A model generated the notes under the pieces. It ran no database searches. It was not told where the DNA came from and was given only the letters and a program-made list of their open reading frames with translations. The position numbers and the translations under genes are program-made. From Escherichia coli (GTDB taxonomy: Bacteria > Pseudomonadota > Gammaproteobacteria > Enterobacterales > Enterobacteriaceae), in the NCBI RefSeq assembly GCF_013122565.1, contig NZ_CP053258.1: a stretch of DNA of 64,000 bases. The stretch is one strand, 5' to 3'. Shown one piece after another: positions 1 to 59,335 of the stretch. Positions within the stretch are counted from its first letter, which is position 1; every line of letters begins with the position of its first letter.

Positions 1-630
<630 letters not shown>

Positions 631-672
631 TTATAGCACAGTCGTGGTGACTTGACCATCGTGCGCGTAGTG

Positions 673-1974
673 TCAGGCAGAGGTAAATTGCGGGATGTTA
701 TGCCATAACGGCCAGCTAAACGAGAAGCGGGCACCACCCAGTTCGCTGGTGTCACAATTAACCGTACCGCCCATTGCCAGTGCTATAGAGTGGACAATTG
801 CCAGCCCCAGCCCGCAGCCGCCGGTTGAGCGATCCCGGCTGGGATCGAGGCGAACAAAAGGTTCAAAGATATGTTCGCGGTTTTCTGGGGCAATCCCTGG
901 GCCATCATCCTCAACAATTAATGTCGCTCTATTCCCCGACAGTAGCAGGCTGGTTTCAACCGTTGAATGGCAGTACCGCAGGGCGTTATTGAGCAAATTA
1001 TCCAGCACGCGCTCCATTAAGCGCATATCCAACGCCGCATAATGGCCTTGCACGAGCGTTTTTATCCGTACCGTTTTATCGGGCGTTACTGCCTGAATAT
1101 CTGCTAGATGCGTTGACAGCCACAACGGCAGGTCTGGTTCGCTAAGATGAAGCTCGTTTTGTGGGCGATCGAGTCGGGCATAAGTCAGCAGCTCTTCAAT
1201 TAAAGCTTCAAGTTGACTGATATCACGATTCAACGCCTGGGATTCGGCGGCGCTCAGGTTATCGCTCATCTCCAGTCGATAACGCAGGCGCACTAACGGT
1301 GTTCGCAGTTCGTGAGCGATACCGTCAATAAGCTGTTTTTTGCTGGCAATTAAGGCGTTGATATTGTCCGCCATCTGGTTAAATGCGACGCCAAGTCGTT
1401 CAAAGCTCGAACCCTCATCAAAGTGGATACGTTCATTGAGATGCCCATCGCCAAATCGTTGCGCCGCTGCTTCCAGTTTTAACATATCCTGCCAGTGCGG
1501 ACGCATCCAGATAAACACCGGAAAGGCGAGGGAAATAGCAATAAAAGCGATCAGGGCGATATCCAGCAATCGCATCTGATGGAGATAATAAAGATAAGGA
1601 ACAGGACCAACTGCCAGCACGTAGTGGCTGCGCGGGATACGCTGCAAAAACGTGTACTGATCGTCCAGGGCGACAATTTCGCCGCCACGCAGTCGGTGCA
1701 TGGAAATATCATCAAGATGGTATTTACTCAGTGGCTCGACACGCAGATCGAAAGAGAGATTTAAATCCATCTCTTTCAGAGTCTTACCCCAGTCGTGTGG
1801 GGGGATCTCACGCAATTCGCTGCGCATCAGATACAGCGAACTGTTCATCAAATCATCCAGCGACTGTTTGCCCGCGCGTTCGGCGGTAAATTTGTACACC
1901 AGCCCAACCAGCAGAGACATCACAAGGAAGCAGACAAACAATAACAGGTAAAACTGGATAAACAGTTTTTTCAT
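673..1974 (-). CDS. rstB: Sensor histidine kinase RstB
   Basis: 433 aa ORF with two N-terminal TM segments, HAMP, H-box (HELRTPL) and HATPase motifs; adjacent to rstA. Confidence 0.9.
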   Translation of the reverse strand: MKKLFIQFYLLLFVCFLVMSLLVGLVYKFTAERAGKQSLDDLMNSSLYLMRSELREIPPHDWGKTLKEMDLNLSFDLRVEPLSKYHLDDISMHRLRGGEIVALDDQYTFLQRIPRSHYVLAVGPVPYLYYLHQMRLLDIALIAFIAISLAFPVFIWMRPHWQDMLKLEAAAQRFGDGHLNERIHFDEGSSFERLGVAFNQMADNINALIASKKQLIDGIAHELRTPLVRLRYRLEMSDNLSAAESQALNRDISQLEALIEELLTYARLDRPQNELHLSEPDLPLWLSTHLADIQAVTPDKTVRIKTLVQGHYAALDMRLMERVLDNLLNNALRYCHSTVETSLLLSGNRATLIVEDDGPGIAPENREHIFEPFVRLDPSRDRSTGGCGLGLAIVHSIALAMGGTVNCDTSELGGARFSFSWPLWHNIPQFTSA

Positions 1975-1977
1975 CGC

Positions 1978-2697
1978 TTATTCCCATGCATGGGGCGCAA
2001 AAAGATAGCCTTTGTTACGCACAGTTTTAATGCGATAAGGTTCTGCGGCGTTATCGAGCAGTTTTTTTCTTAACCGCGAAATAGCCACGTCCACGCTACG
2101 ATCCAGTCCGTCATAACTGACGCCGCGTAAATTTTTCAGCAATGCATCGCGGTCCATGATTTGCCCAGCATGGGTAGCTAATTCCCACAATAATTCGAAA
2201 TCAGCTGTCGAGAGCGAGATTTCAGTGTTAGCCAGGGTGACTACGCGGTTGATGGGATCGATGGTCAACGTGCCGAAATGCAGGGCTTTGTAGGGAGTCA
2301 GAGACGTTTCCTGAAGACCTTTGGTCAGTGTGGCTTGCTCATTCTGACGCAAATGCAAACGTAAACGCGCTAGCAAAACAGCAGGGGGCGTCGTTTTGAG
2401 AATATAGTCGCAGGCACCCATTTCCAGTGCCAGGATGTGGTTCATATCGCTATCGAGAGAGGTTAGAAGAACAATCGGTCCAGACCACTTTGCGCGTAAA
2501 TCACGACAAATGGTCATGCCGTCCTTGCCTGGTAGCATGATGTCGAGTAACACCAAATCCGGATTTTCTCGCAAAATGGTTTCTTCGGCCTGGTCGCCGC
2601 GCGGCTCTACGGTAACCTGCATATCATGTTTTGCCAGGTACGCGGCAATCAGTGAACCGACTTCCGCATCATCTTCCACAAATACGATAGTGTTCAT
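1978..2697 (-). CDS. rstA: OmpR-family response regulator RstA
   Basis: ORF track 1978..2757; likely true start MNTIVFVEDD (ATG at 2695-2697) giving 239 aa; receiver domain plus winged-helix domain. Confidence 0.9.
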   Translation of the reverse strand: MNTIVFVEDDAEVGSLIAAYLAKHDMQVTVEPRGDQAEETILRENPDLVLLDIMLPGKDGMTICRDLRAKWSGPIVLLTSLDSDMNHILALEMGACDYILKTTPPAVLLARLRLHLRQNEQATLTKGLQETSLTPYKALHFGTLTIDPINRVVTLANTEISLSTADFELLWELATHAGQIMDRDALLKNLRGVSYDGLDRSVDVAISRLRKKLLDNAAEPYRIKTVRNKGYLFAPHAWE

Positions 2698-2825
2698 AAC
2701 ATTCACGGTAGATATAAAAACGTCACAATACACCGCGCTGTTTTTACTTACTATCAATCGTTTCTAAACAAGTTTTCATCAGGTATTCTACTGATGACTT
2801 GTTATGGAAGTGTTAAGGTAAAAAG

Positions 2826-3161
2826 ATGGGGCTGGTAATCAAAGCCGCGCTCGGTGCGCTGGTAGTGCTGTTGATTGGTGTTTTAGCAAAAACGAAAAAT
2901 TATTATATCGCCGGGCTGATTCCACTTTTCCCGACCTTTGCGCTTATCGCGCATTATATTGTTGCCAGCGAACGCGGCATTGAAGCCTTACGCGCAACCA
3001 TCATTTTTAGTATGTGGTCGATTATTCCCTATTTTGTTTACCTGGTGTCGCTGTGGTATTTCACCGGAATGATGCGCTTGCCCGCCGCTTTTGTTGGTTC
3101 TGTTGCGTGTTGGGGGATAAGCGCATGGGTGTTGATTATATGCTGGATAAAGCTGCATTAA
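2826..3161 (+). CDS. ydgC: GlpM-family small inner membrane protein
   Basis: 111 aa hydrophobic ORF; position between rstA and folM as in K-12. Confidence 0.8.
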   Translation: MGLVIKAALGALVVLLIGVLAKTKNYYIAGLIPLFPTFALIAHYIVASERGIEALRATIIFSMWSIIPYFVYLVSLWYFTGMMRLPAAFVGSVACWGISAWVLIICWIKLH

Positions 3162-3880
3162 CGCAGATGACGACCGCCATCAAGTGGGAAACTGCGTCCG
3201 GTGACAAAGCAACTGGTAAGTAAGTAATCGACCAGGTCGATCACTTCTTTCTCGCCAGGCGCGGTTTTCATCAGTGATTTATTCAGCGCCTGTTGTCGAT
3301 ATTCGGCATCATCATGTTCATTAAACAGGATCAGCGATGGCGCAATAGAATTCACTTTCACTTCCGGTGCCAGCTTGCGGGCAAACGAGCGGGTCATATT
3401 ATCCAGTGCCGCTTTGCTTGCAGCATACGCAATATGTTTGTCGCTACCGCGCTCCACCACATAATCGGTAAAGTGAATGATATCGCTGGCGGCGTGTCCG
3501 TGCCCACGCAGTAATCTTTCCAGCGCATGGTTGAGCAGGTATGGGGTATTAACGTGGATCTGCATCATGCAAGCCAGTACGTCGGCCAGTGGCGCACCCG
3601 GTTTTTCCGCCATCCACGCACTGGCGTTATGCAAAATAGCACGCAGACCATGGGTGCTTTTTAGTACTTCGTCGGCAAACGCCATCACACCGTCGTTGGT
3701 CGAAAAATCAGCCTGAATACACTGCGCACCTGCATTAATCAGTCCATCAATGGCTGGATAGTGCGTCCGATAGCTGACAATCACCGGTTGCTTTTGATTA
3801 ATGAAATGCCATGCGAGGGCGAGGCCGATGCGACGACCACCGCCAGTAATTAATATTGGCAAGGGCTGGGCTTTACCCAT
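3158..3880 (-). CDS. folM: Dihydromonapterin/dihydrofolate reductase FolM (SDR family)
   Basis: 240 aa ORF with N-terminal ITGGGRRIG Rossmann motif and YAASKAAL SDR active site. Confidence 0.85.
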   Translation of the reverse strand: MGKAQPLPILITGGGRRIGLALAWHFINQKQPVIVSYRTHYPAIDGLINAGAQCIQADFSTNDGVMAFADEVLKSTHGLRAILHNASAWMAEKPGAPLADVLACMMQIHVNTPYLLNHALERLLRGHGHAASDIIHFTDYVVERGSDKHIAYAASKAALDNMTRSFARKLAPEVKVNSIAPSLILFNEHDDAEYRQQALNKSLMKTAPGEKEVIDLVDYLLTSCFVTGRSFPLDGGRHLR

Positions 3881-3916
3881 CGTTATCTCCTTTGCTATCC
3901 AACGATGGGATGAACG

Positions 3917-5299
3917 TTATCCCACCAGCATCCAGGTCGCCGGAACTGAGGCAATTAACAGCATGCCAATCAGCACCATTTCCTGACGGTTCAGTACATT
4001 ATCATGGGTATGCGTTTTACGCGCGTACAGGAAAACCAGCAGCCCCGGTGCATACAGAACAACGGATAACAGCAAGTGCATTGGACCAGAGGCGTACAAT
4101 AACCATAAGCCATAAATGCAGGCACCGACACCTACCGCTTTATGCAGTGGACGGGTTGCGATTTTCAGCAAGAACGCGCCGACCAGGAAATAGGGCACCA
4201 GAATCATTTCTGAGGCGATGGTCAGCAACGTGTTGTAATCGGAACCGGTCAGCCAGATGAGTACCAGACAAATTTGCACGCAGATGTTAGTCAACCACAG
4301 TGAGGCGGATGGCGCAGCTTGTGCGTTCTGGCGCGCAAAAATGCGCGGGAATGCTTTATGAGTGGCGGCCAGGAACGGAACTTCTGCCGCCATGATGGTC
4401 CAGCTTAAGTACGCGCCGCAAACGGAAACGATCAAACCGGCAGCGATGATGATTTCGCCCCACGGTCCCATCATTTCCACCATCAGACCGGCCATTGACG
4501 GGTTACGAATTTCAGCCAGTTCAGGACGTGCCACCACACCCAGCGAAAGCAGCGTTACCAGCAAGTAAACGCCCAGAGCGGAGAGAACCGCCAGCAGTGT
4601 CGCTTTGCCAACATCACGTTTATTACGCGCACGCGCAGAAACAACCACGGCACCTTCCACACCAATGAAAACCCACAGGGTGATCAGCATGGTGTTTTTC
4701 ACCTGTTCCCACACGGGGACGCCAAGTGCAAGTCCGGTGAAGTCGAGCTTGAAGGTATCCAGTTTGAACATCATCATAGCCAGCACAACAAACAGACCCA
4801 GCGGCAACAATTTTGCCAGTGTCGCCACCAGGTTAATGCTGGCAGCGGTTTGCACCCCGCGCAGGATCAAAAAGTGAACAATCCACAATAAAGCCGATGC
4901 ACCGACGATCGATTGCCAGGTATTACCATCGCCAAACAGGCGCAATTCCGGCGTGTCCGTAAAAAAGCTTAACGCGGAAAAAACGATTACCAGATAGGAG
5001 ACGTTGGCGATGACTGCGCACAGCCAGTATCCCCATGCGGAACAAAAGCCGATTAGCTCGCCAAACCCTTCGCGGGCATAGGTAAAGATACCGCCGTCAA
5101 GTTCGGGACGAATGCGCGTGAGGATCAGCATGGCAAAGGCCAGTAATAAAATACCAGCGCCAGTGATACCCCAGCCGATGAGCAGTGCTGCCGGGCTGGC
5201 AACTGCCGCCATATTTTGCGGCAGACTGAAAACACCCGCGCCCAGCATTGAGCTTAATACCAGCGCGGTGAGTGCGCTCAGTCCCAGTTTCTTTTCCAT
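3917..5299 (-). CDS. ydgI: Putative arginine/ornithine antiporter (ArcD-like, APC family)
   Basis: 460 aa polytopic membrane ORF; recalled match to E. coli YdgI. Confidence 0.85.
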   Translation of the reverse strand: MEKKLGLSALTALVLSSMLGAGVFSLPQNMAAVASPAALLIGWGITGAGILLLAFAMLILTRIRPELDGGIFTYAREGFGELIGFCSAWGYWLCAVIANVSYLVIVFSALSFFTDTPELRLFGDGNTWQSIVGASALLWIVHFLILRGVQTAASINLVATLAKLLPLGLFVVLAMMMFKLDTFKLDFTGLALGVPVWEQVKNTMLITLWVFIGVEGAVVVSARARNKRDVGKATLLAVLSALGVYLLVTLLSLGVVARPELAEIRNPSMAGLMVEMMGPWGEIIIAAGLIVSVCGAYLSWTIMAAEVPFLAATHKAFPRIFARQNAQAAPSASLWLTNICVQICLVLIWLTGSDYNTLLTIASEMILVPYFLVGAFLLKIATRPLHKAVGVGACIYGLWLLYASGPMHLLLSVVLYAPGLLVFLYARKTHTHDNVLNRQEMVLIGMLLIASVPATWMLVG

Positions 5300-5484
5300 C
5301 GATATCCAGTGATTAAAACGTGATAAGAAGAATAAATATTAGGGCAAAACGCATAAAAATGGAGTTTGCCACTGAAGCGCGGGATTTTACGAAGAGATGT
5401 GTCTGCATGCAATGGTTGCGGGGAAATTTGTGACTAAAAATACGAAAGGCGGCATCAAGCCGCCTTATAGGAGTAACTGAATAG

Positions 5485-6429
5485 TTATTTATACAGATCT
5501 GCGCTGACGGTCAGGTTATTACCACGTTCCTGCCACTGGCGGGTGATGTGGTAATACTTAGCACCTTTCTTCGCGGCACGTTTCGCAACCTGATAGGAGA
5601 CTTCGGTCATGTTGCCGTAGTTGCCAGAGAATTTGATGCTGTCGAACGGGACCATCATCGCTGCGGTCGCTTTGTTCAGTTCTTCGACTTTAGTGCCATC
5701 CGGGAGCGTGACAGTGTAACGCCCGCCTTTTGATGACTGGGTTTCAAAGAAGCGACCAACTTCAGAACTTGGTGAAGCGGTAGTCGCAACACCCGGGATC
5801 TCAACTTTCTTCGCGGCTTCGCCACCGGCAGCCAGAGCTGCACGTCCTGCTTCGGAATCTGCCGGGATCACATCCGGGCTCTGGACGATACGTTTCTTAG
5901 CATCTTTTTTATAGATGAATGCAGTAATACGCTGGTTGCCGCCCTGGTTGGCATCGATTTGACGAACGATGTAGAAAGAGTAGGCACCTTTCGCTTTTGC
6001 CGCTTTGGTGATGGCATCATTGACTTCTGGCTGGCTACGATAGAAGCCCTGGACGGTGACCGTGTCAAACGGTTCAATCAGAACAGCCTGATCTTTCGGC
6101 AGTTCGACAACACCGTTAATTACGCGATTACTTGTTTCTTCTGCTTTTTCAGCATCGGCTTTATAGAGGTCAGCGACCACACGCCAGTTACCGCTGTTAC
6201 CAAAATCAGAAGTGTCGACAACATAAAAAGAGGCGGCACCTTCTTTATCTGCGCGACGAGAAACGGCTTTCACCGCTTCGCCAATAGCATTAAAACGACC
6301 GGTAACCACTACACGGTCAAAAGGTTTAACCGCTGCCGCTTGCTCCGGTGTCAGTTCTGTTGCTGCGTTAACGGAGAATGCCGTAGCAGAAAGCAGTGCC
6401 GACGCCAGGAGGGTGTTCTTAAGCTTCAT
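5485..6429 (-). CDS. ydgH: Periplasmic protein with repeated DUF1471 (YdgH/BhsA-type) domains
   Basis: 314 aa ORF with signal peptide (MKLKNTLLASALLSATAFSVNA) and three internal repeats. Confidence 0.8.
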   Translation of the reverse strand: MKLKNTLLASALLSATAFSVNAATELTPEQAAAVKPFDRVVVTGRFNAIGEAVKAVSRRADKEGAASFYVVDTSDFGNSGNWRVVADLYKADAEKAEETSNRVINGVVELPKDQAVLIEPFDTVTVQGFYRSQPEVNDAITKAAKAKGAYSFYIVRQIDANQGGNQRITAFIYKKDAKKRIVQSPDVIPADSEAGRAALAAGGEAAKKVEIPGVATTASPSSEVGRFFETQSSKGGRYTVTLPDGTKVEELNKATAAMMVPFDSIKFSGNYGNMTEVSYQVAKRAAKKGAKYYHITRQWQERGNNLTVSADLYK

Positions 6430-6889
6430 AAAAATAATCCTTCGCCTTGCGCAAACCAGGTACTGGTATTGTTATTAACGAGAAACGTGGCTGATTATTG
6501 CATTTAAACGGTGTAACTGTCTGCGTCATTTTTCATATCACATTCCTTAAGCCAATTTTAATCCTGCTCAAATGACCGTCTATGCTTAAAAAACAGCCGC
6601 ATCAGCATCAATACTACTGAAGCAACTGAATTGTATAAGTTAATTTAATGTTAAGTAGTGATTCGTGCCGGGGCGATGTCTCGTTTTACCTGACCGTCGA
6701 AGACAATTATCAGTCTTTATCCGGCGTTCTAAGGTATTTATCCCACTATCACGGCTGAATCGTTAATATTTTGCGAGTTCACGCCGAAATACTGATTTTT
6801 GGCGCTAGATCACAGGCATAATTTTCAGTACGTTATAGGGCGTTTGTTACTAATTTATTTTAACGGAGTAACATTTAGCTCGTACATGA

Positions 6890-8485
<1,596 letters not shown>

Positions 8486-8492
8486 GGGGTAA

Positions 8493-9884
<1,392 letters not shown>

Positions 9885-9888
9885 CCCT

Positions 9889-9920
9889 GACGGCCTCTGC
9901 GGAGGCCGTCACTCTTTATT
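9889..9920. terminator. Stem-loop between convergent pntB and tqsA (possible bidirectional terminator)
   Basis: GACGGCCTC-TGCG-GAGGCCGTC perfect 9 bp stem followed by T-rich tract. Confidence 0.5.
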
Positions 9921-10857
9921 GAGATCGCTTAACAGAACGGCGATGCTTTGACCTCCCGCTGTTTGTTCAAGCGCAATTTTGACAATAATTGTTAACGGCA
10001 CGGAAAGCAGCATACCCACCGGTCCTAACAACCATCCCCAAAAAATCAACGACAAAAATACCACCAATGTGGAAAGTCCCAGCCCACGCCCCATGATGCG
10101 TGGCTCCAGAATATTGCCGAAGACCAGATTAATCAGCAGATATCCCGCCAGCACCAACAACGCTTCGTAGAAGCCATTAAACACCAGTACCTGAGCGATA
10201 ATCGAGGGCGGCGAGCATCGCCCATGCGACCAGGCCGGTGATGATGCTGATGGCTGTTTTCAGCACCAGATAATGAGACACACTGTCAATCGCACGCTGA
10301 ATCGCCGCCATCCCTTCAACCGGACGCGCCATCATTTGCTGAAATTTTCCGGGCAATTGTGGCACTTCGAGCAGCATAAACAGCACCGTCAGCAGCAATA
10401 AAAATATTGATGACATGGCATTAGATAACTGCGTCAATAAGTTGGTGAGCAACGTCATCGCCGCGTTCGGATCAATGTAATGCGCCAGTTGGTCAACTGA
10501 GACGTCAATCCCTACGCGTTGCAACAACGGCTCAAGAGCTTGCAGCGGCGTCATAATAGAGTTGCGATATTGCGGTAACGTCCGCGTCAACTCGTTGAGC
10601 GCGGAACCCAGATAAGCTAACAGCAACACCATAGCCATCACGATGATGGTCATCAAAATCGACACCGCCAGTACACGCGGCACTCGCCAGCGGACCATGT
10701 GTTGCACCAGCGGGTTAAGAATAACAGCAATAAATAATGCGAGAATAAACGGCACGATGATCTCGGCGGCAAAACGGATACCGCAGAGAATAATGACCAG
10801 CATTCCCAACATAATGACGATTTTTAGGCCATTGAGCGTGATGATCGGCTTTGCCAT
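9909..10857 (-). pseudogene. tqsA: AI-2 exporter TqsA (AI-2E/PerM family) interrupted by frameshift or internal deletion
   Basis: Two collinear same-strand ORFs (10177..10857, 226 aa, and 9909..10184, 91 aa) correspond to N- and C-terminal parts of one transporter; frames switch near 10180-10215. Confidence 0.7.
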
Positions 10858-28024: not shown

Positions 28025-28585
28025 CTATTGTGCGGTCGGCTTCAGGAGAGTCTGACCCGGTGTTTTGTGCTCTGCCAGATACTGATGCTGGAATATACAC
28101 ATGCGAATGGCATTACGATATTGACCATTAATAAAGAACTCGTGCATCAATTCACCTTCAACCGTAAAGCCAAGCTTGCGGTAAATGTGAATCGCTTTTT
28201 CATTCTCTTTATCGACGATCAGATACAGCTTATAGAGATTGAGAACGGTGAAGCCATAGTCCATTGCTAATTTGGCGGCACGGGTTGCCAGACCTTTCCC
28301 CTGATACTCCGGGGAGATAATTATCTGAAATTCTGCCCGGCGATGAACATGGTTAATTTCCACCAGCTCCACCAGACCGGCTTTTTCGCCGTCACATTCC
28401 ACCACAAAGCGCCGTTCGCTCTGATCGTGAATATGCTTATCATACAGATCAGAGAGTTCAACAAAGGCTTCGTAGGGTTCCTCAAACCAGTAACGCATCA
28501 CACTGGCGTTATTGTCGAGTTGATGTACATAGCGTAAATCTTCACGCTCCAGCGGGCGTAGCTTAACACTGTGGGCGCTTGGCAT
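28025..28585 (-). CDS. speG: Spermidine N1-acetyltransferase SpeG
   Basis: 186 aa GNAT-fold ORF; translation [23 protein letters not shown] matches SpeG. Confidence 0.92.
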
Positions 28586-29422: not shown

Positions 29423-29627
29423 GGACATAAATCCATTTTATCAATAAGATACGAGGATGTGTCAGCTGACAAAAGGTATTCTATTTCATCTTTTGTCAAC
29501 CATTCACGGCGCAAATATACGCCTTTTTTTGTGATCACTCCGGCTTTTTTCGATCTTCATACTTGTATGGTAGTAGCTCAGTTGCGTAGATTTCATGCAT
29601 CACGACAAGCGATGCAAGGAATCGAAC

Positions 29628-30842
29628 ATGAAGATCGTAAAGGCTGAAGTTTTTGTTACCTGTCCGGGGCGTAATTTCGTCACATTAAAAATCACCACTG
29701 AGGACGGTATTACGGGCCTTGGGGATGCCACCCTCAATGGACGTGAGCTTTCCGTGGCCTCTTATTTGCAGGATCACCTTTGTCCGCAGCTTATTGGTCG
29801 CGATGCGCACCGTATCGAAGATATCTGGCAGTTTTTCTATAAAGGTGCTTACTGGCGTCGCGGTCCGGTTACGATGTCGGCCATTTCAGCGGTTGATATG
29901 GCGCTGTGGGATATTAAAGCCAAAGCTGCCAACATGCCGCTTTACCAGTTACTCGGCGGCGCGTCTCGTGAAGGGGTGATGGTTTATTGCCATACCACCG
30001 GTCACAGTATTGATGAAGCTCTGGATGATTATGCCCGTCATCAGGAGCTGGGATTCAAAGCCATCCGCGTGCAGTGCGGAATCCCTGGTATGAAAACCAC
30101 CTACGGCATGTCGAAAGGTAAAGGTCTGGCTTATGAACCCGCAACCAAAGGACAGTGGCCGGAAGAGCAGCTGTGGTCGACGGAGAAATACCTCGATTTC
30201 ATGCCGAAATTGTTTGACGCGGTACGTAACAAGTTTGGTTTTAATGAACATTTGCTGCATGACATGCACCATCGCTTAACGCCTATTGAAGCGGCGCGCT
30301 TTGGTAAAAGCATTGAAGATTATCGCATGTTCTGGATGGAAGACCCGACGCCTGCGGAAAACCAGGAATGCTTCCGTCTCATTCGCCAACATACCGTCAC
30401 ACCCATCGCAGTGGGTGAAGTCTTCAACAGCATCTGGGACTGCAAACAACTGATTGAAGAGCAACTCATCGATTATATCCGCACCACGCTGACCCATGCA
30501 GGCGGAATTACCGGTATGCGCCGGATTGCCGATTTTGCTTCGTTGTATCAGGTACGTACTGGCTCACACGGTCCTTCCGATTTGTCACCAGTCTGCATGG
30601 CTGCGGCGTTGCACTTTGATCTGTGGGTCCCCAATTTCGGTGTCCAGGAATACATGGGTTATTCCGAACAAATGCTCGAAGTCTTCCCGCACAACTGGAC
30701 TTTCGATAACGGCTATATGCATCCGGGAGACAAACCGGGTCTTGGTATCGAATTCGATGAAAAGCTGGCGGCGAAATATCCCTATGAACCTGCTTATCTA
30801 CCAGTCGCACGTCTGGAAGATGGCACGCTGTGGAACTGGTAA
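29628..30842 (+). CDS. rspA: Starvation-sensing protein RspA (enolase superfamily, mannonate dehydratase-like)
   Basis: ORF track 29595..30842; canonical start [22 protein letters not shown] (ATG 29628); 404 aa. Confidence 0.9.
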
Positions 30843-30853
30843 GGAGTAAGATT

Positions 30854-31873
30854 ATGAAAAGCATATTAATTGAAAAACCGAATCAACTGGCGATTGTCGA
30901 ACGTGAAATACCCACCCCGTCAGCGGGTGAAGTACGAGTAAAAGTGAAACTTGCCGGAATTTGTGGTTCAGATAGCCATATTTACCGTGGGCATAATCCT
31001 TTTGCGAAATATCCGCGCGTCATTGGTCATGAATTCTTTGGCGTCATTGATGCGGTGGGTGAAGGTGTGGAAAGCGCCAGAGTCGGTGAACGTGTTGCTG
31101 TCGATCCGGTGGTCAGCTGTGGTCATTGCTATCCGTGCTCTATAGGTAAACCGAACGTTTGTACGACACTGGCTGTATTAGGTGTGCACGCTGACGGTGG
31201 TTTCAGTGAATATGCCGTGGTTCCGGCAAAAAATGCGTGGAAAATTCCTGAAGCAGTGGCCGATCAATATGCGGTAATGATCGAACCTTTTACCATTGCG
31301 GCTAACGTAACCGGACATGGTCAACCGACTGAAAATGATACCGTTCTGGTTTATGGTGCCGGTCCAATCGGCCTGACGATCGTTCAGGTATTAAAAGGCG
31401 TCTATAACGTTAAAAATGTGATTGTTGCCGATCGCATTGATGAACGACTGGAAAAAGCGAAAGAGAGCGGGGCAGACTGGGCGATTAATAACAGCCAGAC
31501 ACCGCTTGGCGAGATTTTCGCTGCAAAAGGCATCAAGCCGACATTAATTATCGATGCGGCTTGTCATCCTTCTATCCTGAAAGAGGCCGTAACGCTGGCT
31601 TCTCCAGCGGCACGTATTGTATTGATGGGCTTCTCCAGTGAACCGTCTGAAGTGATTCAGCAAGGAATTACCGGAAAAGAACTCTCTATTTTTTCTTCAC
31701 GCTTAAATGCAAATAAATTCCCGGTCGTTATCGACTGGTTAAGTAAAGGGTTAATTAAACCAGAAAAATTAATTACCCATACGTTTGATTTCCAGCATGT
31801 TGCTGATGCCATTAGTTTATTTGAACAGGATCAAAAACATTGCTGCAAAGTCTTACTCACTTTTTCTGAATAA
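30854..31873 (+). CDS. rspB: Zn-dependent alcohol dehydrogenase-family protein RspB
   Basis: ORF track 30830..31873; start MKSILIEKPN; GICGSDSH zinc motif; 339 aa. Confidence 0.9.
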   Translation: MKSILIEKPNQLAIVEREIPTPSAGEVRVKVKLAGICGSDSHIYRGHNPFAKYPRVIGHEFFGVIDAVGEGVESARVGERVAVDPVVSCGHCYPCSIGKPNVCTTLAVLGVHADGGFSEYAVVPAKNAWKIPEAVADQYAVMIEPFTIAANVTGHGQPTENDTVLVYGAGPIGLTIVQVLKGVYNVKNVIVADRIDERLEKAKESGADWAINNSQTPLGEIFAAKGIKPTLIIDAACHPSILKEAVTLASPAARIVLMGFSSEPSEVIQQGITGKELSIFSSRLNANKFPVVIDWLSKGLIKPEKLITHTFDFQHVADAISLFEQDQKHCCKVLLTFSE

Positions 31874-31930
31874 TACCAATAACGGCGAGTAAGTAGTACG
31901 CATCTTACCTCTTTTTTAGAGATAACCATT

Positions 31931-33298
31931 ATGACAATAGAAAAACACGAAAGAAGCACTAAGGATTTGGTGAAAGCAGCAGTATCGGGATGGCTGGGCA
32001 CTGCGCTTGAATTTATGGATTTCCAGTTATATTCGCTCGGCGCAGCGTTAGTGTTTCATGAAATATTTTTTCCTGAATCATCAACGGCAATGGCGTTAAT
32101 TCTGGCAATGGGAACCTACGGTGCAGGTTATGTGGCGCGTATTGTCGGAGCATTTATTTTCGGCAAAATGGGCGACAGAATAGGGCGTAAAAAAGTGCTC
32201 TTTATTACCATCACCATGATGGGGATCTGTACCACCTTAATTGGTGTGTTACCGACCTATGCACAGATTGGTGTTTTTGCACCCATCTTGCTGGTGACGC
32301 TGCGTATTATTCAGGGGTTGGGTGCAGGTGCGGAAATTTCCGGTGCCGGTACGATGCTGGCGGAATATGCACCAAAAGGTAAGCGCGGAATTATCTCCTC
32401 ATTTGTGGCTATGGGAACTAACTGCGGAACCTTGAGCGCAACGGCAATCTGGGCCTTTATGTTCTTCATTCTCAGTAAAGAGGAACTGCTGGCGTGGGGA
32501 TGGCGTATACCGTTCCTGGCGAGTGTTGTCGTGATGGTCTTTGCTATCTGGTTGCGTATGAATCTGAAAGAAAGCCCGGTCTTTGAGAAGGTTAACGACA
32601 GCAACCAACCGACAGCAAAACCTGCACCTGCTGGTAGCATGTTCCAGAGCAAATCCTTCTGGCTGGCAACAGGGCTGCGTTTTGGTCAGGCAGGTAACTC
32701 CGGATTAATTCAGACTTTCCTTGCAGGCTATTTAGTGCAGACGTTATTGTTTAACAAAGCAATTCCAACAGATGCATTGATGATCAGTTCGATTCTCGGC
32801 TTTATGACCATTCCGTTCCTTGGTTGGTTATCCGATAAAATTGGTCGCCGGATCCCGTATATTATTATGAATACCTCCGCGATTGTGCTGGCATGGCCAA
32901 TGCTTTCTATCATCGTAGATAAAAGCTATGCCCCGAGCACCATTATGGTTGCACTGATTGTGATTCATAACTGTGCGGTGCTGGGATTATTTGCTCTGGA
33001 AAACATTACCATGGCAGAAATGTTCGGCTGTAAAAACCGCTTTACCCGGATGGCTATTTCTAAAGAAATTGGTGGTCTTATCGCTTCCGGTTTTGGTCCT
33101 ATCCTGGCGGGTATTTTCTGCACCATGACGGAATCCTGGTATCCGATCGCCATTATGATCATGGCATATTCAGTGATTGGTTTAATCTCTGCGCTGAAAA
33201 TGCCAGAAGTGAAAGACCGTGATTTAAGTGCGCTGGAAGACGCCGCGGAAGTTCAACCGCGTGTTGTAAGAGCTGCGCAACCTTCCAGAAGTCTGTAA
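31931..33298 (+). CDS. ydfJ: MFS transporter YdfJ (apparently intact)
   Basis: 455 aa 12-TM ORF beginning 57 bp after rspB stop. Confidence 0.8.
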   Translation: MTIEKHERSTKDLVKAAVSGWLGTALEFMDFQLYSLGAALVFHEIFFPESSTAMALILAMGTYGAGYVARIVGAFIFGKMGDRIGRKKVLFITITMMGICTTLIGVLPTYAQIGVFAPILLVTLRIIQGLGAGAEISGAGTMLAEYAPKGKRGIISSFVAMGTNCGTLSATAIWAFMFFILSKEELLAWGWRIPFLASVVVMVFAIWLRMNLKESPVFEKVNDSNQPTAKPAPAGSMFQSKSFWLATGLRFGQAGNSGLIQTFLAGYLVQTLLFNKAIPTDALMISSILGFMTIPFLGWLSDKIGRRIPYIIMNTSAIVLAWPMLSIIVDKSYAPSTIMVALIVIHNCAVLGLFALENITMAEMFGCKNRFTRMAISKEIGGLIASGFGPILAGIFCTMTESWYPIAIMIMAYSVIGLISALKMPEVKDRDLSALEDAAEVQPRVVRAAQPSRSL

Positions 33299-33385
33299 AT
33301 CCTCAATCCCTTCTCTTACCGGAGAGGGGATTTTTATTCATATAACAAAACATGTAGCTTGCATATTTAAATTTAAGGAATTGTT

Positions 33386-34846
33386 ATGGGAAATAATTTG
33401 TTATCAGCAAAAGCGACGCTCCCTGTTTATGATCGTAATAACCTGGCTCCAAGAATTGTTCATTTAGGCTTTGGTGCATTTCACCGTGCGCATCAGGGTG
33501 TGTATGCCGATATTCTTGCTACGGAACATTTCAGTGACTGGGGATATTATGAGGTCAACTTAATCGGCGGCGAACAGCAAATTGCCGATTTACAACAGCA
33601 AGATAATCTTTATACCGTTGCGGAAATGTCGGCCGATGCGTGGACGGCTCGCGTCGTTGGCGTCGTTAAAAAAGCCTTGCACGTACAGATAGATGGCTTA
33701 GAAACCGTGTTGGCTGCGATGTGTGAACCACAAATCGCGATTGTCTCTCTGACAATCACCGAAAAAGGGTATTTCCACTCTCCGGCGACCGGACAGTTAA
33801 TGCTCGATCACCCGATGGTCGCTGCCGACGTGCAAAATCCCCACCAGCCGAAAACAGCAACAGGGGTGATTGTTGAGGCGCTGGCTCGCCGTAAAGCGGC
33901 AGGACTTCCCGCATTTACCGTCATGTCATGTGACAACATGCCAGAAAACGGTCATGTTATGCGTGACGTTGTCACTTCCTACGCGCAAGCCGTTGATGTA
34001 AAACTGACACAATGGATCGAAGATAACGTGACTTTCCCATCAACAATGGTGGACCGTATTGTGCCCGCAGTGACAGAGGATACGCTGGCGAAAATCGAAC
34101 AGCTTACCGGTGTGCGCGATCCTGCTGGCGTTGCCTGTGAACCTTTCCGCCAGTGGGTAATCGAAGATAACTTTGTTGCCGGACGTCCGGAATGGGAAAA
34201 AGCGGGAGCAGAACTGGTTAGCGATGTACTGCCTTATGAAGAGATGAAGTTGCGCATGCTCAACGGCAGTCATTCATTCCTGGCGTATCTGGGTTATCTT
34301 GCCGGATATCAGCACATTAATGACTGTATGGAAGATGAACATTATCGTCATGCGGCGTATGCCTTGATGTTGCAGGAACAAGCGCCGACGCTGAAAGTGC
34401 AGGGCGTTGATTTGCAAGATTACGCTAACCGATTAATTGCACGCTATAGCAACCCGGCGTTACGCCATCGAACCTGGCAGATCGCGATGGATGGCAGCCA
34501 GAAATTGCCACAGCGGATGTTGGATTCTGTTCGCTGGCATCTGGCGTATGACAGCAAGTTCGATCTGCTGGCGCTGGGCGTCGCGGGTTGGATGCGTTAT
34601 GTCGGTGGTGTTGATGAACAGGGAAATCCGATAGAAATCAGTGACCCACTGTTACCTGTTATTCAGAAGGCTGTACAAAGTAGTGCCGAAGGGAAAGCGC
34701 GCGTCCAGTCATTGCTGGCGATTAAGGCAATCTTTGGTGATGATTTGCCAGACAATAGCTTGTTTACTGCAAAAGTGACGGAAGCGTACTTGTCTTTATT
34801 AGCGCATGGCGCGAAAGCGACCGTGGCGAAATATTCCGTGAAGTAA
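33386..34846 (+). CDS. ydfI: Mannitol dehydrogenase-family oxidoreductase
   Basis: 486 aa; N-terminal Rossmann region ([12 protein letters not shown]); UxuB/UxaB-like. Confidence 0.85.
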
Positions 34847-35261: not shown

Positions 35262-35948
35262 TTACTCTTCGCTAAACCAGTCGCTGTTTTCCTGGCGGAT
35301 CTGGCGCACGGATTCGCTGATTTCCTGCAAATGTTGCGTCATTGCACGTTCTACCGCATCGCCATCACGTTTTTGCAGGGCAGAGAAAATATCAAGATGC
35401 TGGCGTAACAGCATTTCTGGTGGAGAAACGTGGTCGAAACTCATATAGCGCACGCGATCAACGGTCGCTTTCAGGTTCTCAATGGTATCCCACGCCAGTT
35501 GACAGTCGGCAATCTGCGTCAGGAGTTGATGGAAGTTGTCATCAAGTTCAAAAAAATCATCCAGTTGCTTGCGCTCAATGGCAATGCGTTGCTGGTGAAG
35601 ATTTTGTTCCAGTTGATAGCACTGGCTTTCGGTAATCATGCTCGCCGCCCGACGCGCCACCGCGCACTCAATGGCCTGACGGATAAAACTGCCATTGCGC
35701 ACCTGGGACATGGAAATTTTGTTGACGTAGCTGCCACGCTGCGGACGAATTTGAATCAGGCCGTTTTCTGCCAGTTTAATAAAGGCTTCACGAACCGGCT
35801 GGCGTGACACATTGAAACGAACAGAAACTTCTTTTTCCGACAACGGTGTGCCTGGTGCAATCAGGCAATGGACAATGTCGCGACGAAGAATACGATAAAT
35901 CTGCTGATTGACAGGCTGTGTGGGATTAAGTTGCGTTTCGACGGTCAT
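35262..35948 (-). CDS. ydfH: GntR/FadR-family transcriptional regulator (RspR)
   Basis: 228 aa; N-terminal GntR HTH; located next to rspAB. Confidence 0.85.
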
Positions 35949-52332: not shown

Positions 52333-52470
52333 GAATTGCGGAAAACGATAAAATAGCATTCCCAGGGTACCTTTATTTGCCGCCGCTGTCAGCGAACATG
52401 CTATCCTTTATGAGAATTTACTTATTACGTTGAGATAATTGCCACCCGCAATTGTATGGACAGATAATTA

Positions 52471-53889
52471 ATGCATGTACACCCCATTTCAACTTTCCGT
52501 TTGTTCCAGGAAGGTCATCTGCTACGTAATAGCATCGCTATTTTTGCGCTAACCACGCTGTTCTATTTTATTGGTGCAGAGTTACGGCTGGTTCACGAAC
52601 TTTCTCTTTTCTGGCCGCTGAATGGCGTAATGGCGGGGGTGTTTGCTCGCTATGTCTGGCTTAATCGACTGCATTACTATGCGATCAGTTATGTGGCGAT
52701 GCTGGTTTATGATGCCATAACCACCGAATGGGGACTGGTTTCACTGGCTATCAATTTCTCCAATATGATGTTTATTGTTACCGTCGCCTTACTGGTCGTG
52801 CGGGATAAGCGTTTGGGGAAAAATAAGTATGAGCCAGTAAGTGCCTTACGGCTATTTAATTACTGTCTGATTGCCGCATTATTATGCGCTATTGTCGGGG
52901 CGATTGGTTCGGTCAGTATTGATAGTCTGGATTTCTGGCCTTTGCTTGCGGACTGGTTCAGTGAGCAATTCTCAACGGGCGTGTTGATCGTGCCTTGTAT
53001 GCTGACGTTGGCTATTCCTGGAGTGCTGCCGCGCTTTAAAGCAGAACAGATGATGCCCGCCATCGCGCTTATTGTGTCGGTTATTGCCTCGGTAATCATT
53101 GGCGGAGCGGGGAGTCTGGCGTTCCCGCTGCCTGCATTAATCTGGTGTGCAGTGCGCTATACGCCGCAGGTAACATGTCTGTTGACCTTTGTCACCGGTG
53201 CGGTGGAAATCGTACTGGTGGCTAATTCGGTGATTGATATCTCGGTCGGTTCGCCGTTCTCCATTCCGGAAATGTTCTCCGCACGTCTCGGTATTGCCAC
53301 GATGGCGATATGCCCAATTATGGTTTCTTTTAGCGTGGCAGCGATCAATTCGCTAATGAAGCAAGTTGCGCTGCGAGCCGACTTTGATTTTCTGACTCAG
53401 GTTTACTCACGGTCCGGTCTTTATGAGGCGCTGAAAAGTCCATCGCTGAAACAGACACAACATCTGACTGTCATGCTGCTTGATATCGACTATTTCAAAA
53501 GTATTAACGATAACTATGGACATGAATGTGGCGATAAAGTGTTAAGCGTGTTTGCCCGGCATATTCAGAAGATTGTCGGTGATAAGGGGCTGGTGGCGCG
53601 CATGGGCGGCGAAGAATTTGCTGTTGCAGTGCCGTCGGTGAATCCTGTCGATGGTCTGCTAATGGCGGAAAAAATCCGTAAAGGCGTTGAACTGCAACCA
53701 TTCACCTGGCAACAAAAAACGCTTTATCTCACTGTAAGTATTGGCGTCGGTAGTGGTCGCGCATCGTACCGAACGCTGACCGATGACTTTAATAAATTGA
53801 TGGTCGAAGCCGATACCTGTCTGTATCGCTCGAAGAAAGATGGGCGCAACCGTACCAGCACTATGCGTTACGGGGAGGAAGTTGTCTGA
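52471..53889 (+). CDS. dgcF: Membrane-anchored diguanylate cyclase (GGDEF domain)
   Basis: 472 aa ORF; N-terminal multi-TM sensor region then GGDEF domain (MGGEEFA). Confidence 0.75.
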   Translation: MHVHPISTFRLFQEGHLLRNSIAIFALTTLFYFIGAELRLVHELSLFWPLNGVMAGVFARYVWLNRLHYYAISYVAMLVYDAITTEWGLVSLAINFSNMMFIVTVALLVVRDKRLGKNKYEPVSALRLFNYCLIAALLCAIVGAIGSVSIDSLDFWPLLADWFSEQFSTGVLIVPCMLTLAIPGVLPRFKAEQMMPAIALIVSVIASVIIGGAGSLAFPLPALIWCAVRYTPQVTCLLTFVTGAVEIVLVANSVIDISVGSPFSIPEMFSARLGIATMAICPIMVSFSVAAINSLMKQVALRADFDFLTQVYSRSGLYEALKSPSLKQTQHLTVMLLDIDYFKSINDNYGHECGDKVLSVFARHIQKIVGDKGLVARMGGEEFAVAVPSVNPVDGLLMAEKIRKGVELQPFTWQQKTLYLTVSIGVGSGRASYRTLTDDFNKLMVEADTCLYRSKKDGRNRTSTMRYGEEVV

Positions 53890-57450: not shown

Positions 57451-57499
57451 TTATTTACTCCCGTCAGCGCGTTACCCCAATTGTAGATAAAACTGTTGA

Positions 57500-59240
57500 C
57501 ATCCTCCACGCCCTGAATGACGAGGATCCTGCTACGTTCAGGCTGTCGCCTGAATCATTTCGGTGGGTTCCTGCTTCAACGGGCGGCCTGACTGCACCAT
57601 CCCTCCACAGGCAAGAACGGCGTACCCCGCCGCTAAAATGTTACGAGCGCCGTTTACATCGGCGTTCGCTGTATATCCACATACCTGGCATCTGAATTTA
57701 CTTTGTGACAGGCGATTTTCTTTCGTTGTATGACCACAGCACGCGCAACGCTGGCTTGTGTACGCTGGCGGAACAGCAAGCACCTGACCGCCACACCAGA
57801 GCTGCTTGTACTCAAGCTGGCGACGCATTTCATACCAGCCCTGATCCAGTATCGAACGGTTTAAACCTGATTTTGCCCGGACATTGCGCCCCGGCTGGCT
57901 GACCGTACCCGCTGCTGACTTTGACATGTTGCTGACCTTCAAATCCTCAATGACTATCATTGCGTGGTTTTTGCTGACGGTCGTTGTGACTTTGTGAAGG
58001 TAGTCCCTGCGGATATTTGCGATACGGGAATGCAGTCGCTGTATTTTGCGTTTCTGCTTCTGCCAGTTGTTGCTGAATTTGACCTTGCGGCTTAACTGTC
58101 GCTGAAGTCTCGCCAGCTTCTTCTGGTTTTTCTGAAAACTGTTTACAGGCTCAAAGACTGTGCCATCTGACAGCGTGGCGAGTTTAGCCACGCCAGCATC
58201 CAGCCCGATCATTGATGCTGAAGGGTGAACCGGAGTGGATACTTCACTTTCTGTCTGAATACTGATGTGCCACTTACCGCAGGACTGGCTGACCGTGACA
58301 TTTTTCACAACACCCGTGACCTGACGGCTATTCCGGTAGCGCATCCAGCCCAGTTTCGGCAGAAAAATACGGCTGTTTTCCTGATCGAGCTTAACGCCCT
58401 GCGGGTAGCGGAATGCATCATTCTGTCCCCGCTTTTTGAATCGGGGAAAAGCAGCCCGCTTCCGGAAGAAGTTTTTGTAAGCCCACTCAAGGTCTTTCAG
58501 TGACTGTTGCAATGGCTGTGACGGGGCATCTTTAAGCCATTGCGTTTCAGTGGCATTTTTCCACTCAACCAGCCAGGAAGCCATTTTCCCGTAAGGGATG
58601 TATTTATTACCGGCCTCATGATTCTCATTCTGACGTGCCAGAGCACGATTGAAAACGAAACGACATGCGCCTGCGAAGCGCCTCATTTCACGCTCCTGTT
58701 GACCACCGGGTCTTAACTGGAATTTAAATGCCTGTAGTCGTTTCACAGGTCAAATGATATTTTGGTCTGTGAAAAAAGAAACCGATATCCGGCGTGGAAG
58801 GCATTGTGTTTTCCTGAAGCATGTTCACATGGTCTTTGTCACCAAATACCGACGCCAGATTTTTGACCATGACGCGACAGAAAAACTACGCACTTACTTT
58901 TCAAATGTATGTGCTGATTTTGAAGCTGAACTGGTTGAAATGGATGGCGAACCAGATCACGTCCATTTGTTAATTAACTATCCTCCCAAACTGGCGATAT
59001 CCAGTCTGGTAAACAGCCTCAAAAGCGTATCGGGTAGGTTACTGCGACGAGATCGACCAGATATTGCAGCCAGGTATTACTACAAAGGCGTTTTGTGGAG
59101 TCCTGGCTATTTTGCCAGTAGCTGCGGAGGTACGCCAATATCCGTCATCCGCCAATACATTGAACAACAGCAAACACCTGGTCAGGTGGAAAACCACACC
59201 TTATATCCCCGCCCTGAAGGACGGGGTTTTACGGCGCACC
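57500..59240. mobile_element. IS200/IS605-family insertion sequence (IS609-like), about 1.7 kb, with tnpA and tnpB
   Basis: TnpB and Y1 TnpA ORFs fill the gap between tam and lsrG; similar imperfect palindromes near both ends (57506-57525 and 59207-59226). Ends approximate. Confidence 0.6.
57538..58746 (-). CDS. tnpB: TnpB (IS200/IS605 OrfB; RuvC-like RNA-guided endonuclease family)
   Basis: 402 aa, GTG start; RuvC-I GLDAG, RuvC-II IEDL, RuvC-III NADVNGA and CxxC...CxxC zinc finger present; starts [18 protein letters not shown] as recalled for E. coli InsQ. Confidence 0.9.
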
Positions 59241-59335
59241 GGATAAATTCGCCTCACGGCATCAACCCATTGAACAGACGCTTTTTACGCGGCCCGGTCA
59301 TTAAAGATTCCAGTTTCGCGACACAGGTTTTGTAG
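58754..59335 (+). CDS. tnpA: IS200-type Y1 (HuH) transposase TnpA; ORF as read extends past the expected C-terminus
   Basis: HVHLL HuH motif and conserved YY/GYF tyrosines; canonical proteins are about 150 aa, so the true end is probably near 59210-59240; the rest is read-through overlapping lsrG. Confidence 0.8.

Follow-up and report, generated by a model that had tools for sequence, protein, structure and literature searches.

The 64-kb window (the whole 64,000-nucleotide stretch of Escherichia coli DNA analysed here) almost certainly carries a scar-free, unoccupied phage attachment site, attB, at positions 32008-32026, within codons 28-31 of ydfJ. Phages with an IntQ-type tyrosine integrase, which would include Qin, mEp460-like phages, the 'PPydfJ' phages of STEC and at least one Stx2a phage, are proposed to integrate at this ydfJ site by site-specific recombination, in which attP and attB share an identical 11-bp core. 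Since no phage is integrated in the window, ydfJ encodes the full 455-aa MHS-family MFS transporter there and stays directly downstream of rspA-rspB, with ydfI and rspR close behind. In K-12, ydfJ has lost its first 28 codons and its upstream promoter to the 20.5-kb insertion, which also parts rspR, ydfI and ydfJ from rspAB.

The features of the locus are collected in Table 1. An uninterrupted ydfJ ORF of 455 aa, 57 bp past the rspB stop codon, had been described in the initial annotation, and both the ORF and its spacing from rspB are present as described. The start given for the feature, 31860, falls in the last codons of rspB, and the ydfJ ORF itself begins at 31931. The same 57-bp spacing is seen ahead of ynfP in MG1655 and ahead of ydfJ in JB2 and ST131. 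In profile searches, RspA exceeded the cut-offs of both NF011654 (819.9 bits) and NF043051 ManD (744 bits), RspB matched the NF007489 'Zn-dependent oxidoreductase' equivalog with 693 bits (1-339 of 339 matched), and YdfI scored 648.9 bits against NF011611 (cut-off 603). Beyond ydfI, ydfZ and rspR follow on the opposite strand. The palindrome upstream of rspA fits the published RspR box, ATACnnGTAT (PMC8249747); it is one of only two matches to this box in the window and is a predicted operator. We also checked 31874-33298 for inserted or att-flanked DNA, and ydfJ for a frameshift or stop relative to intact orthologues, and found none. Elsewhere in the window, speG is intact at 28025-28585, and the 64 kb hold only one IS element. 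Both features make a Shigella origin appear unlikely, the former because Shigella lineages are generally considered to have lost speG.

Table 1. Features of the rspAB-ydfJ locus, in window coordinates.
Feature	Position	Strand	Description
RspR (YdfH) operator-like palindrome ATACTTGTAT	29559..29568	+	~60 bp ahead of the start of rspA
rspA	29628..30842	+	ORF, 404 aa; ManD-type D-mannonate dehydratase family; colinear with MG1655 b1581
rspB	30854..31873	+	339-aa Zn-dependent oxidoreductase; TAA at 31871-31873
rspB-ydfJ spacer	31874..31930	+	57 bp; no terminator-like hairpin
Intact ydfJ	31931..33298	+	Single uninterrupted ORF, ATG start, 455 aa; predicted MHS-family MFS metabolite/H+ symporter
Unoccupied attB (almost certain) for Qin/PPydfJ-type lambdoid phages	32008..32026	+	19-bp zone TGAATTTATGGATTTCCAG, imperfect match to phage
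Terminator-like hairpin and T-run	33305..33332	+	Directly 3' of the ydfJ stop; 12-pair stem, then TTTATTCATA; from consensus scan
ydfI	33386..34846	+	486 aa; mannitol-dehydrogenase family, fructuronate-reductase-like
rspR/ydfH	35262..35948	-	228 aa; GntR/FCD repressor of rspAB; Pfam GntR and FCD

We compared the window with the MG1655 genome (NC_000913.3). Three MG1655 segments were compared with it by BLAST. The window and MG1655 1602543-1684855 are colinear, in reversed orientation, and identity to MG1655 is 99.3% in window 1-10200 and 98.0-98.8% elsewhere. Around the site itself, MG1655 1631002-1653915 (rspB-ynfP, Qin and ydfJ) agrees with the window in its flanking genes and in their order, at ~98.6% DNA identity. 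The RefSeq annotation places 'cryptic prophage Qin' at 1632277-1652745, a 20,469-bp element between ydfJ and ynfP/rspB. This agrees with the prophage of roughly 20 kb that the initial annotation had placed between rspB and ydfJ, and rules out the alternative of a different Qin site, with MG1655 ydfJ full-length beside rspB. When the two sequences were aligned around rspB and ydfJ, MG1655 1627000-1632291 corresponded to window 37300-32008 and MG1655 1652746-1660000 to window 32023-24769. The two flanks of Qin meet and overlap at window 32008-32026, with no Qin DNA between them. What is absent from the window is thus exactly the Qin segment, as expected from the initial proposal that the Qin site is empty and the locus is not MG1655-like.

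Qin sequences were also searched for in the window as a whole. Within the 64 kb, there was no blastn match to MG1655 1632292-1652745 and no tblastn match to any of 34 Qin protein queries, and a blastn-short search for dicF gave just one 11-nt chance match. The suggestion that Qin functions (dicB/dicF, relBE, cspB/F) are missing therefore holds for the 64-kb window; outside it, homologues of these genes could reside in lambdoid prophages at other genomic positions.

The consequence of the insertion for ydfJ can be read from the two K-12 gene fragments. According to a review of 'grounded' prophages (PMC6379469), the 5' end of ydfJ is where Qin integrated, and the gene lost its promoter and 28 codons in the process. 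In MG1655, ydfJ (b1543, 1631002-1632285) is annotated as a 427-aa CDS from the internal Met29, and its 5' remnant forms residues 1-31 of the 36-aa ynfP (b4534). The ynfP translation reads MTIEKHERSTKDLVKAAVSGWLGTALEFMDF and then KSHAC, and K-12 YdfJ has the N-terminus MDFQLYSLG. Placed on YdfJ of the window, the fragments tile, with ynfP covering residues 1-31 and K-12 YdfJ residues 29-455, and an overlap of M29-D30-F31. MG1655 ydfJ had been described as a disrupted pseudogene; the disruption was borne out, but the RefSeq copy used carries no pseudogene flag and lists the 427-aa CDS and ynfP instead. Compared to the whole gene in the window, MG1655 ydfJ is missing 28 codons at the N-terminus as well as the operon context upstream.

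At the junction, an exact 11-bp core, TTATGGATTTC, lies at window 32013-32023 and is the only copy in the window. MG1655 has two copies of this core, at 1632277 and 1652746 (both Qin ends), and the attP of phage mEp460_ev081 (LR597641) has one. Qin lies between the two core copies in MG1655, whereas the window has a single core and no prophage. Within the ydfJ reading frame, the core takes in the second and third bases of the Phe28 codon and the whole codons for Met29, Asp30 and Phe31. Because it covers the Met29 codon, the K-12 ydfJ remnant can be annotated from Met29.

To define the sequences on either side of the core, we used a three-way alignment, a four-way alignment with the free phage, and direct extraction, with the arms given on the MG1655 strand. 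All four sites share the core GAAATCCATAA. In the attB of the window, the core is preceded by ...AATATAACTG and followed by ATTCAAGCGCAG..., and in the attP of mEp460_ev081 by ...GTATGACTCTT and TTCACAGGTGTT..., respectively. The ydfJ-side junction of MG1655 combines the left arm ...AATATAACTG with the right arm TTCACAGGTGTT..., and the rspB-side junction combines ...GCATGACTCTT with ATTCAAGCGCAG.... Each attB and attP arm recurs in exactly one MG1655 junction, the attP arms being the two Qin ends. An arm exchange this exact and reciprocal is what integrase-mediated attP x attB recombination should produce. If one indel and one mismatch are allowed, the att similarity reaches 18-19 bp (32008-32026); for PPydfJ prophages, an att sequence of 18 or 19 bp has been defined (PMC8112680), in agreement with this length. 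There was no phage remnant, duplicated core or phage-arm polymorphism at the window site.

The phage partner of this recombination is represented by mEp460_ev081 and its relatives, while the window has the bacterial site without phage DNA. In mEp460_ev081, attP is directly downstream of the xis-int genes, with the core at the 3' end of the gene pair, and the last integrase codons overlap the core in this phage as well as in MG1655. The integrase genes of PhiR42_1, HannyBb, Tritos and mEp460_ev081 are 98.8-99.9% identical to the Qin intQ remnant. The integrase gene of the Stx2a-converting phage Stx2a_EH1535 is 93% identical to the intQ remnant and has the same 11-bp core at its end, and the common core and integrase suggest that this phage also targets ydfJ. 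In STEC, ydfJ is a common prophage locus; the O104:H4 strain C227-11, with no phage there, served as the attB reference, and the ydfJ-targeting phages of STEC include carriers of type III effector genes (PMC8112680). In comparative genome papers, ydfJ or ydfJ-rspB also appears among the lambdoid prophage sites of strains W, B, Crooks and SE11. The attB of the window is probably still available to such phages and could be lysogenised, a view to which the 62% of complete genomes interrupted at this exact point lend indirect support. With a free attB, the source strain would be a potential recipient of ydfJ-targeting lambdoid phages.

To determine how common the empty site is, we searched 5,426 complete E. 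coli genomes, a collection without Shigella, with a query of 601 bp that has the core at its centre and with a 2.4-kb query. The shorter query matched 5,374 of the 5,426 genomes, and the junction was uninterrupted in 2,010 of the 5,426 (37%). With the longer query, 2,012 genomes were uninterrupted, including UPEC 536, which matched as one unbroken piece annotated with rspB, ydfJ and ydfI. Nearly all other genomes (62%) break at positions 291-309 of the 601-bp query, equivalent to window 32008-32026. The junction of O25b:H4-ST131 strain 5392 is uninterrupted, as in the window, and RefSeq annotations of JB2 and this ST131 strain show rspA, rspB, 57 bp, a ydfJ of 1368 bp (455 aa), ydfI, ydfZ and rspR in the same arrangement. 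Over 601 bp, the JB2 junction is 100% identical to the window, and the best 24-kb match of the window to any of the 5,426 complete genomes is 98.7%. Genomes with an empty site show only ordinary allelic differences from the window, with ~1-2% DNA divergence over the wider region. In a set of 638 Escherichia/Shigella genomes, Qin was present at the MG1655 locus in 48% (PMC6379469). Strains differ in whether a prophage occupies the ydfJ site. This polymorphism at a known hotspot is ordinary, well documented and already known, and the importance of the empty site in the window is small beyond correct annotation.

More than one history could lie behind an empty attB. The site may have been occupied in a recent ancestor and then vacated by precise Int/Xis excision (curing), in which case the empty attB would be secondary. 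Occupancy is the commoner state, with an insertion at the exact site in 62% of complete genomes; there are active phages whose xis-int modules for the ydfJ site are intact, and site-specific excision restores a perfect attB as seen in the window. However, a never-occupied site would show an equally perfect attB, none of the three traces sought at the junction is present, and the window is a single sequence without phylogenetic information, and we therefore consider excision rather unlikely, if the more probable of the alternatives discussed here. It appears improbable that the empty locus was imported, with homologous recombination replacing an occupied allele of the rspAB-ydfJI region by one from a donor whose site was unoccupied. 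The shift in identity to MG1655 by segment, and a junction identical to that of JB2 despite the lower best match over 24 kb, make up the kind of mosaic that recombination typically leaves in E. coli, but mosaic identity is generic in E. coli and does not imply such an event, and we found no recombination breakpoints specifically bracketing the att site. Never-occupied, excised and imported histories all predict a perfect attB alike.

An assembly artefact, in which a resident prophage was dropped or collapsed to leave a falsely empty junction, was also considered, as prophages are a classic source of contig breaks in draft assemblies. We regard this explanation as barely credible. The att core of the junction is perfect to the base, the reading frame is intact, and the same form of junction is found in 2,010 complete genomes. 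In addition, a mis-join should not remake attB exactly, except where the reads included some from excised cells.

By family score, YdfJ in the window is a complete MHS-family MFS transporter, with symport predicted. It scored 462.9 bits against TIGR00883 'metabolite/H+ symporter' (curated cut-off 443.45), with profile positions 1-400 aligned to residues 23-418, and the Pfam MFS_1 match begins at residue 21. These profile searches place the start of the conserved MFS core at residue 21-23. As K-12 YdfJ starts at residue 29, it lacks the initial part of the first conserved transmembrane segment. Transporter activity of the full-length protein appears likely from these matches. A PDB sequence search with YdfJ returned just one relative, a phosphate transporter from a plant, which is distant and aligns with residues 61-168, and searches of the literature returned no experimental data on YdfJ. 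The YdfJ proteins of JB2 and ST131 strain 5392 are 99-100% identical to that of the window, differing by 1-3 amino acids, and contigs with an identical YdfJ protein are only 98.8-98.9% identical to the window in DNA. Due to the complete ydfJ and the undivided rspAB-ydfJ-ydfI-rspR locus, K-12 annotation (ynfP, the 427-aa YdfJ and the 'type-B' separation of rspR) should not be transferred to this strain.

The rspAB genes are repressed by RspR; in K-12, Qin lies between rspR and these targets, whereas some other E. coli do not show this separation (PMC8249747). The distance from rspR to the rspA operator is ~26 kb in K-12, compared to ~5.7 kb in the window. Gene spacing and a consensus terminator scan suggest that ydfJ may be co-transcribed with rspAB from the RspR-repressed rspA promoter. 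The scan detected no terminator-like site between rspB and ydfJ and one after ydfJ; this hairpin would be the first terminator-like signal of the transcript and is a putative terminator. A sigma-70 consensus scan found no strong promoter in the region and none upstream of ydfJ or ydfI. It returned 3 promoter-like sites versus 9.3 in shuffled controls, fewer than in the controls, and this count is silent on internal promoters.

It is possible, although we propose it only tentatively, that rspA-rspB-ydfJ, with ydfI and rspR alongside, is one RspR-controlled unit for sugar-acid uptake and catabolism, with YdfJ as its dedicated importer. A cluster of the RspA/RspB/YdfI type is said to have been tied to L-gulonate catabolism by Wichelecki and colleagues in 2014, and the substrate of the rspA-rspB-ydfJ unit might be L-gulonate or a related hexonate. 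Our full-text literature searches returned nothing on an L-gulonate pathway assignment for RspA/RspB/YdfI. If the proposal is correct, the importer role of YdfJ went uncharacterised because Qin splits the operon in the reference strain K-12, and the source strain of the window would offer a natural, intact background for that role.

The ydfJ att core, the 11-bp sequence common to both ends of the Qin prophage and the attP of phage mEp460_ev081, was also found in the Stx2a-converting phage Stx2a_EH1535 (LC727872), where GAAATCCATAA occupies positions 1153-1163 at the end of the integrase gene. This integrase gene is 93% identical to intQ, but the other attP arm of Stx2a_EH1535 is unlike the Qin/mEp460 arm. 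In fourteen further Stx2a phage records, just the last ~340 bp of the int/attP-proximal region are shared, at ~91% identity.

No close match to the window was found among complete E. coli genomes, the best reaching 98.7% identity over 24 kb, and even contigs encoding an identical YdfJ protein remain ~1.1% divergent from it. Identity to MG1655 is 99.3% in 1-10200, compared to 98.0-98.8% elsewhere. Three loci at which the window differs in structure from MG1655 or other genomes are listed below.

Coordinates of features at the tqsA, dgcF, and tam-lsrG loci of the window
Feature	Position	Strand	Description
tqsA (AI-2 exporter)	9909-10857	-	deletion junction at about 10184-10200
dgcF (yneF)	52471-53889	+	472-aa ORF
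IS200/IS605-family element	57493-59241		1.75 kb, inserted between tam and lsrG
tnpB	57538-58746	-	402-aa TnpB with OrfB_IS605 and Cas12f1-like TNB domains
tnpA	58754-59335	+	Y1 transposase; listed ORF 193 aa, Y1_Tnp domain at residues 19-139

Compared to MG1655, 86 bp are missing inside the window tqsA, which shifts the reading frame and leaves two ORFs, one of 226 aa and the other of 91 aa. When a 601-bp tqsA query was used, the best-matching complete E. coli genomes all covered it in two pieces spanning 687 bp, indicating that they do not share the deletion. The window tqsA has the appearance of a pseudogene specific to the strain or its lineage.

At dgcF, MG1655 is the shorter of the two, with only 315 aa annotated, and it lacks ~500 bp of the window at 52405-52904. 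The window DgcF has a long hydrophobic N-terminal region followed by a GGDEF domain at residues 303-461; the K-12 form of this diguanylate cyclase appears to be N-terminally deleted.

Insertion sequences are nearly absent from the window, which speaks against Shigella as its source, and so may the intact speG (28025-28585). The IS200/IS605-family element is missing between tam and lsrG in MG1655. A query comprising the element plus its flanks was at least 80% covered in ~519 complete E. coli genomes; in the 12 of these that were listed, the match was annotated as tnpB, tnpA, lsrG, and tam.
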